Shown here piece after piece: positions 13,632 to 63,006 of a DNA stretch of 64,000 bases (within the stretch, counting starts at the first letter, position 1; every line of letters begins with the position of its first letter). The translations under genes and the position numbers were made by a program. The stretch is from Eledone cirrhosa (Eukaryota). The stretch is from the NCBI GenBank assembly GCA_964016885.1, contig OZ024750.1:29636001-29700000 (forward strand). The letters run 5' to 3'. Below the pieces are notes generated by a model. That model did not search any database, was not told the origin of the DNA, and saw only the letters and a program-made list of their open reading frames with translations.

Positions 13632-14487
13632 AAAAATGTTTCTATTTTCTTTTTCTTTTTCTTTTTCTTCTTGGAAAGGGTAGCTTCTAATGTTTTTTGA
13701 TACCATAAGTAATGCATAAGGACCAGAGGAAATGTTCAGTTAGAGGTCTCCGGGCGAGCTTACCCCGTCTTTGCCATTCATTTTGGAAAATCATATAAAG
13801 GTCCATGGTTTGACCAGGTCACTCGATCTCCTGGAGATAGCAGTTAAACCCCGCTTAACTCATCATACCCTACCGCCTTGAAAAATAAAAAAGGGAGAGG
13901 GCTGAGCACAGTGGAAAATATAGCCCCTGATATATAAATGGGTGGGCACATTGAAAAATATAGCCCCTGATTTATAAATGAATGGGCACGGCTGTAACGC
14001 CTTTGAAAATAAAGGTGGGCACATTGGAAACTATAGCCCCTGATATATATTAATGGATGGGCATGGTTGTAACGTCTTTGAAAATGAGGTCTTCTCAATC
14101 AGGATTGTCCTGAAGCTAAACAACAGCAATAACAACAACAACAAATAAAGAGTGTTGTATTACTGAATCTTAAAATATTACAATTTTATACAAATTTGTA
14201 TAATTAAATAAAATATGTAATCATTTACTGCAATCAATAAACATTTTCGCTGCGAGGAGAGAGATTCGTATGATGTTTTGACCTGTAATTGGATTTGGCG
14301 TGGGTGAATGTGGAGTGTGTAGTAAGAAATTCAGGTTTATGAATTTACTTAGTGTGGTCAGATCAAGAAGTATGGAAAATTAGGTTGGTCAGTTGACCAA
14401 ACTGTGAGATAAAATTATTTTATTTGGGAGAATTGGGCGCAAAACTAGGAGAAGAGGGTGAACATTGTAGAGATAGATTAGGGGATG

Positions 14488-15025
14488 AAATACCCAGGAA
14501 AACATTGTAGAGCTAACCTAGAGTGTTAAATACCCAGGTACATATTGTAGAGTTAACCTAGGGTGCTAAATACCCAGGAACACATTGTAGAGCTAACCTA
14601 GGGTGTTAAATACCCAGGTACATATTGTAGAGTTAACCTAGGGTGCTAAATACCCAGGAAAACATTGTAGAGCTAACCTAGAGTGTTAAATACCCAGGTA
14701 CATATTGTAGAGTTAACCTAGGGTGTTAAATACCCAGGAACACATTGTAGAGCTAACCTAGGGTGTTAAATACCCAGGTACATATTGTAGAGCTAACCTA
14801 GGGTGCTAAATACCCAGGAACACATTGTAGAGCTAACCTAGAGTGTTAAATACCCAGGAACACATTGTAGAGCTAACCTAGGGTGTTAAATACCCAAGTA
14901 CACATTGTAGAGCTAACCTAGGGTGTTAAATACCCAGGTACATATTGTAGAGCTAACCTAGGGTGCTAAATACCCAGGAACACATTGTAGAGCTAACCTA
15001 GGGTGTTAAATACTCAGGTACACAT
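14488..15025. repeat. 40-bp minisatellite, about 13 units
   Basis: Unit AAATACCCAGG(A/T)ACA(C/T)ATTGTAGAG(C/T)TAACCTAGGGTGTT. Confidence 0.97.
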
Positions 15026-15137
15026 TTGGGGGTTTGAAATCAGAACAAGGTGACAAATAGAACTCCTTAACCACACATACCTACCTGCCTCTAATTGTTT
15101 GTATGTGTGTGTGCACGTACGTATGTATGTCTATAAG

Positions 15138-17016: not shown

Positions 17017-17050
17017 CTTAACGTTTCGGACACTAGTTCTTCATCAGAAA
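17017..17050 (-). ncRNA. Minimal hammerhead ribozyme motif (GAAACGUU type)
   Basis: UUU CUGAUGA A GAAC UAGU GUCC GAAA CG UU/AAG with one mismatch in stem II; related degenerate copies at about 23020-23045 and 63168-63210. Confidence 0.6.
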
Positions 17051-28893: not shown

Positions 28894-30245
28894 GAGTCGA
28901 GTTTCCTCGCTTCGATGAACAGTACTCTTTCCACTTGTTTCGATCTAACATCACTCCAAGATCCGTTAACTTTCCTCCCGTGTCAGCATATACCATATCT
29001 AGATACATTGTTGCAGTATAACCTCTACTTCTCTGACCATGTACAGTACGACCTCTACTTCTCTGACCATGTACAGTACGACCTCTACTTCTCTGACCAT
29101 GTACAGTACGACCTCTACTTCTCTGACCATGTACAGTACGACCTCTACTTCTCTGACCATGTACAGTACGACCTCTACTTCTCTGACCTTGTACAGTACG
29201 ACCTCTACTTCTCTGACCATGTACAGTATAACCTCTACTTCTCTGACCTTGTACAGTACGACCTCTACTTCTCTGACCATGTACAGTACGACCTCTACTT
29301 CTCTGACCATGTACAGTATAACCTCTACTTCTCTGACCATGTACAGTACGACCTCTACTTCTCTGACCATGTACAGTATAACCTCTACTTCTCTGACCAT
29401 GTACAGTACGACCTCTACTTCTCTGACCATGTACAGTACGACCTCTACTTCTCTGACCATGTACAGTATAACCTCTACTTCTCTGACCATGTACAGTACG
29501 ACCTCTACTTCTCTGACCATGTACAGTATAACCTCTACTTCTCTGACCATGTACAGTACGACCTCTACTTCTCTGACCATGTACAGTACGACCTCTACTT
29601 CTCTGACCATGTACAGTATAACCTCTACTTCTCTGACCATGTACAGTACGACCTCTACTTCTCTGACCATGTACAGTACGACCTCTACTTCTCTGACCAT
29701 GTACAGTATAACCTCTACTTCTCTGACCTTGTACAGTACGACCTCTACTTCTCTGACTATGTACAGTACGACCTCTACTTCTCTGACCATGTACAGTACG
29801 ACCTCTACTTCTCTGACCATGTACAGTACGACCTCTACTTCTCTGACCATGTACAGTACGACCTCTACTTCTCTGACCATGTACAGTACGACCTCTACTT
29901 CTCTGACCATGTACAGTATAACCTCTACTTCTCTGACCTTGTACAGTACGACCTCTACTTCTCTGACCATGTACAGTACGACCTCTACTTCTCTGACCAT
30001 GTACAGTACGACCTCTACTTCTCTGACCATGTACAGTATAACCTCTACTTCTCTGACCATGTACAGTACGACCTCTACTTCTCTAACCATGTGCAGTACG
30101 ACCTCTACTTCTCTGACCATGTACAATATAACCTCTACTTCTCTGACCATGTACAGTACGACCTCTACTTCTCTGACCATGTGCAGGCTGCCATAATAGA
30201 ACCCCGCTGACACACTCGTCTTTTGCCGCAAACGGCATAGTATTG
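28886..30245 (-). pseudogene. RTE/RTE-X-like LINE 3' end interrupted by internal tandem amplification
   Basis: AKDECVSGVLLWQPA[HGQRSRGRTV]n HGQRSRGYTATMYLDMVYADTGGKLTDLGVMLDRNKWKEY...RE*. Confidence 0.8.
29012..30185. repeat. 30-bp minisatellite, about 39 highly homogeneous units
   Basis: Unit GTACAGTA(CG/TA)ACCTCTACTTCTCTGACCAT. Confidence 0.99.
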
Positions 30246-32275: not shown

Positions 32276-32829
32276 AGGTAAGTCTCAGAATGGAGTAGTG
32301 CTGTCTCACCTGTGATGGTGATACTGTTATATATACAGGTAAGTCTTAGAATGGAGTAGTGCTGTCTCACCTGTGATGGTGATACCGTTATATATACAGG
32401 TAAGTCTTAGAATGGAGTAGTGCTGTCTCACCTGTGATGGTGATACCGTTATATATACAGGTAAGTCTTAGAATGGAGTAGTGCTGTCTCACCTGTGATG
32501 GTGATACCGTTATATATACAGGTAAGTCTTAGAATGGAGTAGTGCTGTCTCACCTGTGATGGTGATACTGTTATATATACAGGTAAGTCTCAGAATGGAG
32601 TAGTGCTGTCTCACCTGTGATGGTGATACTGTTATATATACAGGTAAGTCTTAGAATGGAGTAGTGCTGTCTCACCTGTGATGGTGATACCGTTATATAT
32701 ACAGGTAAGTCTTAGAATGGAGTAGTGCTGTCTCACCTGTGATGGTGATACCGTTATATATACAGGTAAGTCTTAGAATGGAGTAGTGCTGTCTTACCTG
32801 TGACGGTGATACTGTTATATATACAGGTA
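32276..32829. repeat. 61-bp minisatellite, 9 units
   Basis: Unit AGGTAAGTCTTAGAATGGAGTAGTGCTGTCTCACCTGTGATGGTGATACCGTTATATATAC. Confidence 0.98.
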
Positions 32830-33525: not shown

Positions 33526-33619
33526 ACAGAGAGAGAGAGAGAGATTTAGCTGATATTTCTTGCCGTATTATCTTACCCTCACGAAGTCGTCTTCCTTACT
33601 GATTAACGAAAGTGTGCAC

Positions 33620-33667
33620 TCAAAAATTGAAAATTAGAATTGGTGCTCTGAAATAGCGATATATACA

Positions 33668-33722
<55 letters not shown>

Positions 33723-33758
33723 CTATTTCAGAGCACCAATTCTAATTTTCAATTTTTG
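33620..33758. repeat. About 40-bp perfect inverted repeat with a (TA)n apex
   Basis: CAAAAATTGAAAATTAGAATTGGTGCTCTGAAATAGCGAT and its reverse complement; the left arm continues into GAGTGC on the minus strand. Confidence 0.85.
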
Positions 33759-33832
33759 CTGGACCGGCAACCGCTCTGTATAATTAATTCCTGATTATTA
33801 CTGGAATTCTATAAGAATCCAACATTCATAAT

Positions 33833-33923
33833 TTTCAACAAACAAGGGGAGTACTAAGCTCTGAGGAATACCAACAGTATGAAACAGAGATCTGTCAGCT
33901 TATCTCCCTTTGTTTGTTGAAAA
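33833..33923 (+). ncRNA. Canonical type I hammerhead ribozyme with GUC site
   Basis: UAAGCU CUGAGGA(33861-67) AUAC CAACA GUAU GAA ACAG AGAU CUGU C/AGCUUA; predicted cut after 33896; stem I extended by UUUUCAACAAACAAGGGGAG / CUCCCUUUGUUUGUUGAAAA. Confidence 0.9.
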
Positions 33924-34025
33924 AAGAAGTAAGTGACATAGTCACTACTTTAAAACAATAGCGTAAGGTCTTCAAAATGCTTTTAATTAAGCATACAGTG
34001 TATTGCAAAATACACTATATATACA

Positions 34026-34085
<60 letters not shown>

Positions 34086-34123
34086 ATATTAATAAATGGA
34101 AACTATATTTATAAAACCATAAT

Positions 34124-34189
34124 TATTTTATTATATATATTTCAAGGGCAACCAAGGCAAATTATGGTGCGCTTTCATCAGATAAAATA
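34124..34189 (-). ncRNA. Type I hammerhead ribozyme (related to 31549)
   Basis: UAUUUUAU CUGAUGA(34181-75) AAG C GCACCA..UGGUUGC C CUU GAAA UAUAUA UA/AUAAAAUA. Confidence 0.85.
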
Positions 34190-34465
34190 CAGATTTGTTT
34201 TATAAATAAATATTGACATACCCGGAAAAAAGGTAACCTTAACGGTTGAAGTTCCTAGTGTATCTAGGTCTACGTTATCCTTTTAAAAATATGTCAGTGA
34301 ATGATTTGAGGGAAATTTGGCTGATATTTCTTGCCAGTTGAGCGTCTACGTGGAAACTCCTCGTTCGTAGGTCTATACCTGGTGTGTTTTAACCACAGGA
34401 CACTGTCTAAATATATTTTACATTAGTTCATTTTGTGCATGAAACGTTATGTAAGGGATTAACTC

Positions 34466-38850: not shown

Positions 38851-39729
38851 TATATATTTATATATATATACGTGTGTGTGTGTAATAAATTATAATATGC
38901 ATATAATGATGTGCACACAAAATACACCAGGAAATAGAAATATTGACATTAAAATATCAGTTTACTCCTGGCGTGGTTCTGTGTTTCGATTGGTAACTAT
39001 ATATCATCAGCAGAAGAAAGAACCGTGTATCTGTAGCAGTTTTGTTTCTGTTGTTTTAATATAGATTTGTGTTATTTTAGTGAAATTTTGCATGACTGTA
39101 CAAGACTGCTTTAGGGTCCCAGGGAGGGGATGAGTTTTCTCAAAATTCAAGAGAGCTGAAATAGGGTTACTTAGATATTCAAGAGCGTCACTTTATCTCT
39201 CTGAGTCCTTGGCTAGTGTAACAGATAACCCCTTTTTTACTTATAAGCTCTATCAACAAACGTGAAGTATCCACCCTCGAAACATACCCTACATTGAATA
39301 AAGTACTCGTGGGTATATTATGTTTGAAGAACAACATTCCGTTAGTACTGTCATGGCTGGAGCGCTTTTGGTTACATAATTGTTCAATGATGGTTGACCA
39401 GTGACAAAAGGAAGTTTGTCTGGCAAGTAAGGATGTCTCTACAAGATCACTCGTTTACTAGAAATAATTACCAGGTCTCCCCTTAAAACACACGTTAAAA
39501 AGAAGAAAGAACCCATTGAATGTGTAGGTGAGCAGCCAAATGGTTTGTGTGTTTGTCTCAAGATCGTTAAGTCGTAGGTTCAATCCCCCATTTGAAACTA
39601 CAACACGCAGGAATCGATCTAACGACATTACGATCGTACGTCAAGTATTCTAACCATTAGGCCATGCGTTTTTACCATGAGACAACGGTCATCTTTGAAT
39701 GTCTCCCATGGGATTACATACTTATGTGA

Positions 39730-40710: not shown

Positions 40711-41172
40711 ACAATATAATTAGCTGCTAAGAATTACAGAGCAGGTATTTATTCATGTTAAGGGCGGTGGGTTGACAGAATCGGTAGAGCGTTGGACAAA
40801 ATGTTTTACAATATAATTAGCTGCTAAGAATCACAGAGCAGGTATTTATTCATGTTAAGGGCGGTGGGTTGACAGAATCGGTAGAGCGTTGGACAAAATG
40901 TTTTACAATATAATTAGCTGCTAAGAATCACAGAGCAGGTATTTATTCATGTTAAGGGCGGTGGGTTGACAGAATCGGTAGAGCGCTGGGCAAAATGTTT
41001 TGCAGTATTTAGCAGCGACTTTCTACGTTCTGAGTTCAAATCCCGTCGAGGTCAACGTTGCCCCTCATCCTTTCGGGAGTCGATAAAATAAAGTACCAGT
41101 TAAGTACTGGGGTCCGTGTAATCGACTTTCCCATCCCACAAATTGCTGGCCTTGTGCCTACATTAGAAATCT
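40711..41172 (+). mobile_element. Family A SINE whose head plus upstream flank is triplicated (about 97-bp unit)
   Basis: Units start at 40711, 40808 and 40905; the last continues into B-box, central domain and tail. Confidence 0.85.
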
Positions 41173-42860: not shown

Positions 42861-44990
42861 TTGTTATCCTAGTAACTTGTGTATAACTTCCTGCCCATTT
42901 CTCCAGCAATGTCCCGCAAGTCTTTGAGCAATTGTAGTTGTTATCCTAGTAACTTGTGTATAACTTCCTACCCAGTTCTCCAGCAATGTCCCGCAAGTCT
43001 TTGAGCAATTGTAGTTGTTATCCTAGTAACTTGTGTATAACTTCCTACCCAGTTCTCCAGCAATGTCCCGCAAGTCTTTGAGCAATTGTAGTTGTTATCC
43101 TAGTAACTTGTGTATAACTTCCTGCCCATTTCTCCAGCAATGTCCCGCAAGTCTTTGAACAATTGTAGTTGTTATCCTAGTAACTTGTGTATAACTTCCT
43201 GCCCTTTTCTCCAGCAATGTCCCGCAAGTCTTTGAGCAATTGTAGTTGTTATCCTAGTAACTTGTGTATAACTTCCTGCCCTTTTCTCCAGCAATGTCCC
43301 GCAAGTCTTTGAGCAATTGTAGTTGTTATCCTAGTAACTTGTGTATAACTTCCTGCCCTTTTCTCCAGCAATGTCCCGCAAGTCTTTGAGCAATTGTAGC
43401 TGTTATCCTAGTAACTTGTGTATAACTTCCTGCCCATTTCTCCAGCAATGTCCCGCAAGTCTTTGAGCAATTGTAGTTGTTATCCTAGTAACTTGTGTAT
43501 AACTTCCTGCCCTTTTCTCCAGCAATGTCCCGCAAGTCTTTGAGCAATTGTAGCTGTTATCCTAGTAACTTGTGTATAACTTCCTACCCAGTTCTCCAGC
43601 AATGTCCCGCAAGTCTTTGAGCAATTGTAGCTGTTATCCTAGTAACTTGTGTATAACTTCCTACCCAGTTCTCCAGCAATGTCCCGCAAGTCTTTGAGCA
43701 ATTGTAGTTGTTATCCTAGTAACTTGTGTATAACTTCCTACCCAGTTCTCCAGCAATGTCCCGCAAGTCTTTGAGCAATTGTAGTTGTTATCCTAGTAAC
43801 TTGTGTATAACTTCCTACCCAGTTCTCCAGCAATGTCCCGCAAGTCTTTGAGCAATTGTAGCTGTTATCCTAGTAACTTGTGTATAACTTCCTACCCAGT
43901 TCTCCAGCAATGTCCCGCAAGTCTTTGAGCAATTGTAGCTGTTATCCTAGTAACTTGTGTATAACTTCCTACCCAGTTCTCCAGCAATGTCCCGCAAGTC
44001 TTTGAGCAATTGTAGTTGTTATCCTAGTAACTTGTGTATAACTTCCTACCCAGTTCTCCAGCAATGTCTATAACTTCCTACCCAGTTCTCCAGCAATGTC
44101 CCGCAAGTCTTTGAGCAATTGTAGCTGTTATCCTAGTAACTTGTGTATAACTTCCTACCCAGTTCTCCAGCAATGTCCCGCAAGTCTTTGAGCAATTGTA
44201 GCTGTTATCCTAGTAACTTGTGTATAACTTCCTACCCAGTTCTCCAGCAATGTCCCGCAAGTCTTTGAGCAATTGTAGCTGTTATCCTAGTAACTTGTGT
44301 ATAACTTCCTACCCAGTTCTCCAGCAATGTCCCGCAAGTCTTTGAGCAATTGTAGCTGTTATCCTAGTAACTTGTGTATAACTTCCTACCCAGTTCTCCA
44401 GCAATGTCCCGCAAGTCTTTGAGCAATTGTAGCTGTTATCCTAGTAACTTGTGTATAACTTCCTACCCAGTTCTCCAGCAATGTCCCGCAAGTCTTTGAG
44501 CAATTGTAGCTGTTATCCTAGTAACTTGTGTATAACTTCCTGCCCATTTCTCCAGCAATGTCCCGCAAGTCTTTGAACAATTGTAGCTGTTATCCTAGTA
44601 ACTTGTGTATAACTTCCTGCCCTTTTCTCCAGCAATGTCCCGCAAGTCTTTGAACAATTGTAGCTGTTATCCTAGTAACTTGTGTATAACTTCCTGCCCA
44701 TTTCTCCAGCAATGTCCCGCAAGTCTTTGAACAATTGTAGTTGTTATCCTAGTAACTTGTGTATAACTTCCTGCCCTTTTCTCCAGCAATGTCCCGCAAG
44801 TCTTTGAGCAATTGTAGCTGTTATCCTAGTAACTTGTGTATAACTTCCTGCCCTTTTCTCCAGCAATGTCCCGCAAGTCTTTGAGCAATTGTAGCTGTTA
44901 TCCTAGTAACTTGTGTATAACGTCCTGCTTACTTCTCCAGCAATGTCCCGCAGATCATAACTCTTTGAGTAGTTGCAGTTGTTATCCTAG
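42861..44990. repeat. 77-bp minisatellite, about 27 units, derived from RTE-X-like ORF2
   Basis: Unit TTGTTATCCTAGTAACTTGTGTATAACTTCCT..TCTCCAGCAATGTCCCGCAAGTCTTTGAGCAATTGTAG; minus strand reads QRLAGHCWRNGQEVIHKLL. Confidence 0.95.
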
Positions 44991-56247: not shown

Positions 56248-56423
56248 GTTATTCCGGGTTGAATCAGAGGTAACCACAGTAAGTAAGGTACTCAATACAT
56301 AGCAGAGTATAAAAGTTTTAATATAGATGAGATTCTACAGGACTAGGACTGTTTCATTCTTTAGAAATTCCTGATGATTTCTAAAGAATGAAACAGTTCT
56401 AGTCCTGTAGAATCTCATCTATC

Positions 56424-62752: not shown

Positions 62753-63006
62753 GCCAAGACTGGAATTGAACCATCAGCACAGTTGAGGTATGTCATACAT
62801 CAATTTATATATTTTATCTGATGAGGGCGTACTGAGGAAACAGCACAGTACCTCCGAAATATATATAATAAAATATATTTTGATTAAGTGAATTTCTATA
62901 TTTATTAATATTTTGAATTAATATTAATAAATTTTTCTCTTGAGTGCTTCTAATCTATTGTAAAACTATATTCATTGATTAATCAATGAACCTTGTTTAA
63001 CTTTGG

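Follow-up and report, generated by a model that had tools for sequence, protein, structure and literature searches.

The metazoan non-LTR retrozymes are, in the available text of Cervera and de la Pena (2020; PMC7229834), small non-coding elements of low GC (150-450 bp) with one canonical type I hammerhead per unit, occurring as monomers to multimers and proposed to cycle through RNA circles with the aid of a Penelope-like reverse transcriptase. The locus discussed here lies in a 64-kb window, the whole stretch of DNA that was analysed, and is alike in all of these respects; a U-U at the base of helix II, known from the axolotl, also occurs in one of its subfamilies. In contrast, stem I here runs 20 bp beyond its loop, and insertions are dispersed and two-armed with a Penelope-type tail, an arrangement that the same text does not describe for retrozymes. 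Circles have been demonstrated for the retrozymes of that study and are predicted for the window family. Helix III is composed of 4 bp compared to the usual 1-2 bp reported in the accessible part of PMC4209133.

The vertebrate non-LTR retrozymes (Li, Clavereau, Pollet 2026; 10.64898/2026.07.22.740005) are, as presented in the portion of that report available, members of the same class that co-occur with Penelope-like elements and are likewise proposed to be non-autonomous. Their connection to Penelope is one of pseudo-LTR homology, while here it is an insertion footprint, and their arrays are partly ascribed to local amplification, whereas the young arrays described below appear to have been born multimeric. 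The EN+ Penelope-like elements Neptune, Hydra and Poseidon, as characterized in the excerpts at hand of Craig et al. (2021; PMC8557442) and Frangieh et al. (2024; PMC11167929), share with the present family partial tandems, an inverted 5′ arm, an optional tail, AT-rich or (TA)n targets, a hammerhead and two adjacent start sites of reverse transcription, but the present unit is only 318 bp long, has no open reading frame and carries a tail of about 27 nt rather than 30-40 nt. Finally, the extended type I hammerhead of Schistosoma mansoni, compared through the description given in part of PMC11875169, presents the same 6-bp stem Ia, unpaired U1.7 and terminal A of loop II, but lacks the A10.1-U11.1 pair, the 5-nt loop II and the much longer distal stem found here.

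By the sequence-level definition, the window unit is a metazoan non-LTR retrozyme, and the family to which it belongs is likely to be a new one within an already known class of element. A literature search covering titles and the beginnings of abstracts, together with the texts cited here, returned no per-insertion haplotype fixation and no arm-coupled start sites for a retrozyme. The features of the locus, in window coordinates, are as follows.

33621-33659, minus strand: inverted (left) arm, which repeats in reverse the initial 39 nt of the unit, tail included (100% identity to 33720-33758)
33660-33719, plus strand: final bases of an upstream unit with expanded (TA)n, forming a unit-unit junction (repeats 34015-34083)
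33720-34038, plus strand: full repeat unit of about 318 bp (retrozyme monomer), non-coding, GC 0.32 (from genome matches)
33720-33746, plus strand: optional tail of about 27 nt, the ends of which are the two putative start sites of reverse transcription (from run-end counts)
33761-33777, plus strand: 17-nt motif with an exact match in the sister family, a candidate protein-binding element (from sequence comparison)
33832-33851, plus strand: 5′ arm of distal stem I, 20 nt (from fold and covariation)
33852-33860, plus strand: 5′ side of the internal loop (33852-33854) and 5′ strand of stem Ia (33855-33860) (from sequence and fold)
33861-33896, plus strand: hammerhead core with stem-loops II and III, predicted cut between 33896 and 33897 (from sequence and copies)
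33897-33923, plus strand: 3′ strand of stem Ia (33897-33902), unpaired U1.7 (33903) and distal 3′ arm (33904-33923) (from sequence and copies)
34016-34089, no strand assigned: (TA)n microsatellite at the right end of the insertion, the target (the same end recurs in the family)

The hammerhead and its long stem I

Every conserved position of a type I hammerhead core (C3-A9, G12-A15.1, U16.1 and H17) is present in the window copy: C3-A9 occupies 33861-33867 with G at N7, G12-A15.1 (GAAA) occupies 33881-33884, and U16.1-C17 lies at 33895-33896 within the GUC of 33894-33896. Stem II (33868-33871/33877-33880) and stem III (33884-33887/33892-33895) are closed by loops of 5 and 4 nt, respectively, while stem I is open. 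A canonical core flanked by two 4-bp stems had been claimed for this place in a preliminary description, and both points are borne out by direct reading of the sequence. A 106-nt fragment folds at -37.5 kcal/mol (z = -6.0, with 0 of 200 shuffles as good). The same description gave stem I about 25 bp continuing past an internal loop; the continuation stands, with the length corrected to 26 bp and the start to 33832, as stem Ia contributes 6 bp (33855-33860/33897-33902) and, beyond a 3x1 internal loop (33852-33854/33903), the distal stem contributes 20 bp including one G-U (33832-33851/33904-33923). In the window fragment the active fold lies 0.7 kcal/mol above the minimum-energy fold, with pairing probabilities of about 0.46 for stem II and 0.59 for stem III that are unchanged by the distal stem; that of stem Ia falls from about 0.97 to about 0.47 once the distal stem is removed. 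The 10.1-11.1 pair, described as a highly conserved G-C in the consulted section of PMC4209133, is A-U in the window copy; in an alignment of 29 sequences it is A-U in 19, G-C in 5 and unpaired in 5, and both U-U and G-C occur in other subfamilies.

Rfam returned no match at its gathering score in the 64-kb window and no hammerhead among 39 weak matches to 33600-34100, which is a limit of the library and not a biochemical criterion; miRNA matches near the motif are artefacts of (TA)n hairpins. With a loose core pattern, 5 sites are detected within the window compared to 0.38 expected, and none of the remaining four folds into a complete hammerhead. Core-like motifs devoid of convincing stems I and III occur at 17023-17047 (minus strand), 38983-39010 (minus strand) and 62818-62841 (plus strand). 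A chance origin of the motif itself is excluded by its copy number, since three motif patterns gave 226, 600 and 1,273 matches genome-wide and none in reversed controls, together with the covariation of its helices, although the pairing of stem III is itself invariant. Judged on these sequence features the motif is a genuine type I hammerhead fold, and self-cleavage is predicted.

The alignment of 29 comprises the window and 28 of 50 sites found with a pattern that covers loop II and stem III and leaves stem I untouched; 17 of the 50 were dropped beforehand for want of a flanking anchor, and curation by hand took out 5 others (a duplicate, two truncated copies, a degenerate one and a poly-G expansion). 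Within it, 89.7% of the stem cells pair, compared to 41-49% in slid controls, and both sides have changed at 7 pairs spread over stem II, stem Ia and the distal stem; the distal stem taken by itself displays A-U/G-C (12/14) and C-G/G-C (12/11) swaps. RNAalifold, unprompted, recovers 8 pairs of the distal stem, including both swapped pairs, along with stems II and III, and prefers a competing hairpin over stem Ia. The number of pairs changing on both sides is no higher than in shuffles (232/500 and 351/500), and the covarying cells are a few inherited subfamily changes. Independent support for the reality of the long stem comes from a sister family, 67% identical overall, which forms a long distal stem from different sequence. 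Whether other genomic copies keep the extension had been posed as a check, and it is kept family-wide, being present in 147 aligned copies among those listed, truncated or deleted ones excepted. The earlier suggestion that it might be a short inverted pseudo-LTR or a by-product of insertion falls with this persistence and with the compensatory changes, and the true inverted arm of the window copy lies upstream, at 33621-33659.

A true insertion fold-back does occur elsewhere in the window, at 56326-56419, where a piece of another hammerhead-like repeat has given rise to a perfect inverted repeat of about 44 bp; some 200 nt upstream of it there is a second long hairpin. A-to-I editing of the long stem was considered and is not supported: when rare variants were counted over 167 copies of the window type, sense A>G stood at 0.0089 compared to 0.0081 for T>C outside the stem and 0.0143 in the 5′ arm, and the large A>G excess derives from two inherited subfamily sites.

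The internal loop had also been put forward as the site of a tertiary contact between loops I and II. Its position is as expected and the partner bases are kept, namely the unpaired U seven bases past the cut in 428 of 444 copies and the terminal A of loop II in 436 of 444, a conservation partly built in since most copies were fetched by patterns covering one or both positions. These two bases form a Hoogsteen pair in extended hammerheads according to the available description in PMC11875169. The contact is thus plausible for the window hammerhead, where it would follow from placement and base identity.

Metazoan type I hammerheads with a short palindromic helix III cleave as dimers (PMC4209133, in the text available). 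The 12 nt of stem III in the window give a hairpin of -1.8 kcal/mol and a self-duplex of -12.2 kcal/mol, so that monomer cleavage appears plausible given the 4-bp stem, and a double-hammerhead mode may apply as well, being also compatible with the modelled self-duplex. Stem III is a perfect palindrome of 10 or 12 nt in two sister subfamilies, one of which is unable to form the hairpin, and a 6-nt palindrome in the sister family.

All core positions are intact in 340 of the 446 copies that span the core, counting a compensatory U3-A8 variant, known to be active from the part of PMC3088659 available, whose subfamily yields 843 motif matches with 0 in the reversed control. The proposal that this weaker core leads to more multimers was rejected, as position-ordered samples show no difference: runs with two cores make up 11/197 for C3-G8 and 6/72 for U3-A8 (p = 0.41), or 17 of 269 sampled runs overall. 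An apparent excess of U3-A8 multimers, in 28 of 29 other loci viewed, is untrustworthy because the query was itself half U3-A8. Long U3-A8 arrays are found at L233 (G000:C1:268924500-268933500), L234 and L299-L301, and the one at L233 shows a higher-order period made up of full units in alternation with a deleted unit devoid of the ribozyme.

The 318-bp unit, its relatives and Penelope-like neighbours

The hammerhead is embedded in a unit at 33720-34038 that is overlapped by no open reading frame of 100 amino acids and that falls, at low GC and with a single type I hammerhead, within the 150-450-bp range of non-coding retrozymes. With its first 271 nt as query, the 40 genome candidates that were scored, out of 2,069 and with the window included, are 96-100% identical, and more than 1,000 copies reside in the 3.0-Gb assembly, which is rich in microsatellites. 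Young minisatellites within the window lie at 14462-15026 (period 40 bp), 29014-30186 (30), 32276-32829 (61), 40711-41008 (97) and 42862-44952 (77). The nearest full-length relative of the window copy among the loci compared is 98% identical, which argues that this branch is not very recent, and the window copy is an ordinary, older member of its family. Tandem copies are arranged head-to-tail, from dimers up to arrays of at least 5 units. For Li et al. a locus counts as active when two units in succession each have a complete hammerhead; with its one hammerhead, the window copy would allow one cut and would release no monomer by itself.

A 17-nt motif at 33761-33777 is a candidate protein-binding element, judging by its exact conservation between families, and was seen in no open-reading-frame context among the retrieved loci. 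No tRNA lies near the unit. Contigs of four sequencing runs under three organism labels contain related pieces and are uninformative about expression. A third, more diverged relative of the unit, with variant tail and motif, occurs at L092, and older 311-bp tandem arrays at L107, L308 and L309, which match only the unit ends at 77-81%, probably represent the sister family or a relative.

The sister family is represented by 16,564 genome-wide matches to a 27-mer and has a unit of 310-311 bp, with insertions reaching 5-9 units per arm among the first 100 listed. It is typified by the very young, two-armed clonal arrays at G000:C1:1239961-1244457 (L372-L385, L402). Its hammerhead bears the cut site GUA along with the 6-nt palindrome at stem III; the variants seen most often in this family map to the ribozyme or right next to it, and certain A>G changes turn up on more than one haplotype. 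Of 30 loci taken in order of position, 26 contain two or more full units and provided 100 units for haplotype analysis. The variant is carried by all units of the array in 79 variant-by-array cases; in another 24 it is restricted to one or two units, and only 3 of these 24 are seen in another array. The arrays fall into 16 haplotypes, and the haplotype is common to both arms in all 9 informative two-armed loci as well as in two further arrays. The cleavage joint is crossed seamlessly at 125 of 127 motif sites. As new variants thereby pass from one unit to all in a single step, a monomer bottleneck followed by re-multimerisation is needed, and rolling on a circle is the simplest route to such uniformity; exact template jumping, the copying of already uniform arrays and assembly smoothing are possible alternatives.

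This genome is rich in families of Penelope-like elements with reverse transcriptase and GIY-YIG endonuclease, one of them very young. The window element contains no open reading frame for either domain, and comparison of the unit with the 3′ ends of two Penelope-like families (60 loci) revealed no similarity. A Neptune-like element (L033:3378-6671 in G000:C3; L342-L371), with 150 of 150 scored matches 100% identical over the endonuclease, has open frames of up to about 1,300 amino acids (1,098 at L033) and a (TA)n target; its hammerhead is different and its optional tail measures about 60 nt, compared to 27-30 nt in the retrozymes. A Hydra-like family (L031:7269-8854; L312-L341) is older and abundant, with 54,857 first-look candidates, and its L031 copy is interrupted by a microsatellite and frameshifts. 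Both clade labels derive from cysteine linker motifs and the accessible text of PMC8557442. The Neptune-like L033 frame and the Hydra-like family lie near some copies; each was considered as the helper and set aside, having no sequence in common with the unit. By analogy, the unit appears to behave as a non-autonomous Penelope-like element without belonging to the autonomous ones.

Insertion anatomy and template

A copy of the window family is made up of sense runs that follow one another head to tail with seamless joints. A run in the opposite direction is often present as well, and the 5′ ends of opposed runs meet mid-insertion (133 divergent pairs compared to 3 convergent). Runs begin at the tail end in 135 of 390 cases, at the TA junction in 198 and elsewhere in 57, which suggests two start sites about 27 nt apart. 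The 92 two-armed insertions with both ends classifiable divide into 73 tail/no-tail, 15 no-tail/no-tail and 4 tail/tail, so that the start sites of the two arms are not independent (chi-square 34, p = 5e-9). In the window insertion itself, the left arm is short and carries the tail (33621-33659), the right arm terminates in (TA)n, and the unit-unit junction at 33660-33719 is one that recurs in tandem copies. Its right flank, 34083-34250, is another dispersed repeat that is also found beside copies L005, L024 and L029, and a 28-nt direct repeat (33537-33564/34308-34335) brackets the insertion region.

Partial tandems, an inverted arm and a one-sided tail are the signature of Penelope-like elements in the excerpt available of PMC8557442, and a partial tandem, an inverted 5′ arm and an optional tail at one end are what the window family displays. 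Its (TA)n targeting is shared by the sister family, in which 1,006 tail-(TA)n ends were counted with a pattern that itself requires a TA run. By analogy with these elements, the insertion pattern matches the Penelope-like type. A further parallel is provided by the Poseidon protein, predicted to be dimeric, which in vitro extends both strands from two adjacent internal start sites, as reported in the part of PMC11167929 at hand.

The template is less readily deduced in the window family. Among 86 second-pass 5′ ends, 3 fall within 5 nt of the cut compared to 3.1 expected, without a pile-up, and few of 176 sites break just upstream of it. This lack of excess indicates that reverse transcription ran through an intact ribozyme joint, and with such read-through a circle and an uncleaved precursor are equally compatible; the uncleaved linear precursor is the main substrate in vitro in the text available of PMC11167929. 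Stalling in the distal 3′ arm was not evident (15 observed, 11.7 expected, p = 0.20). Among pairs in tandem, 21 of 81 share rare variants, as do 27 of 111 pairs in inverted orientation, compared to 25 of 500 controls; only 6 tandem and 10 inverted pairs are mutual nearest neighbours, and at least one tandem (L156) is chimeric for two subfamilies. The signal of a single template is therefore weak in the window family.

The proposed cycle and its alternatives

The family is probably a non-LTR retrozyme: its RNA would be cut to monomers and circularised, and a Penelope-like reverse transcriptase-endonuclease provided in trans would then copy it into (TA)n sites. Where read-through transcription spans several units, the RNA would be cut after GUC, with the distal stem locking stem Ia and positioning the contact between loops I and II, and the same stem would then hold both cut ends together for ligation. 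A dimeric protein of the Penelope type would nick both strands of the target and prime at two start sites, one for each arm, and the reverse transcriptase would keep going round its template, across the uncut ribozyme joint, covering about 1-2 units in the window family and 5-9 in the sister family. Several observations count against this explanation, namely the lack of similarity to the two Penelope-like families compared, a read-through of the cut that suits an uncleaved precursor equally well, the weak single-template signal with its chimeric tandem, a covariation count no higher than in shuffles, and the hairpin that competes with stem Ia. In addition, 8 of 9 predicted frog retrozyme dimers are left uncleaved in vitro in the available portion of 10.64898/2026.07.22.740005.

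An unlikely competitor treats the unit as a non-autonomous Penelope-like element whose template is a linear read-through RNA that has not been cleaved. The hammerhead would be active yet outside the transposition cycle, and tandems would stem from template jumping, from arrays that were homogeneous before they were copied, or from new insertions into the TA run of the element itself. It draws on the anole Poseidon, for which hammerhead mutants left insertion unchanged and no reads ended at the cleavage site in vitro (PMC11167929, as far as available), and it accords with the absence of a pile-up at the cut, the chimeric tandem and the equal share of two-core runs in C3-G8 and U3-A8 copies noted above. 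It is at odds with the sister family, where derived haplotypes differing by one change are fixed array-wide and convincing shared mosaics are absent (3/103 cases), with the seamless joints, and with the compensatory change that keeps core and stems across subfamilies.

A highly improbable reading takes the unit for a pseudo-LTR that has become detached from an autonomous Penelope-like element, with severely 5′-truncated copies. Pseudo-LTRs of such elements do carry type I hammerheads, in mostly 5′-truncated copies (from the portion available of PMC4209133), and their insertion anatomy is identical, but among the first 181 loci no reverse transcriptase or GIY-YIG frame is joined in sense to the unit and neighbouring frames lie at varied distances and orientations; moreover, the upstream neighbour of a unit is another unit, in rows that can reach at least 5. 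That the distal stem is the fold-back by-product of one insertion and the hammerhead a chance or dead motif deserves almost no credence, for while real fold-backs occur in the window (the perfect inverted repeat of about 44 bp near 56371) and Rfam gives no match, the extension spans 147 aligned copies among those listed, covaries and is rebuilt from other sequence in the sister family.

Beyond the retrozyme cycle preferred here, it is an evenly balanced proposition that the two families are the genomic record of rolling-circle target-primed reverse transcription, in which a dimeric enzyme would prime twice, 27-30 nt apart, on one ribozyme-made circle and roll on both strands, such that insertions would be born as two divergent clonal arrays. 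For the sister, with a stem III that would cut as a dimer only, stable circles and long arrays would be expected, and its transposition may be continuing today; the monomer-competent window version would have short arrays. The long, covarying stem I would act as the ligation clamp.

A passage from circular RNA to genomic tandems and a role for Penelope-like elements have been proposed previously (PMC7229834; 10.64898/2026.07.22.740005, in the text available of each), and in vitro work questions the relevance of hammerhead cleavage (PMC11167929, likewise in part). The coupling of start sites between arms and the single haplotype per array bear on both the circle-to-genome step and the role of cleavage, and the weight of the finding lies mainly in these family-level footprints and in the young sister family. 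With C3-G8 and U3-A8 cores, G-C, A-U and U-U at 10.1-11.1, and monomer-type and dimer-only forms of stem III all present as natural ribozyme variants in one backbone, the cycle is directly testable.
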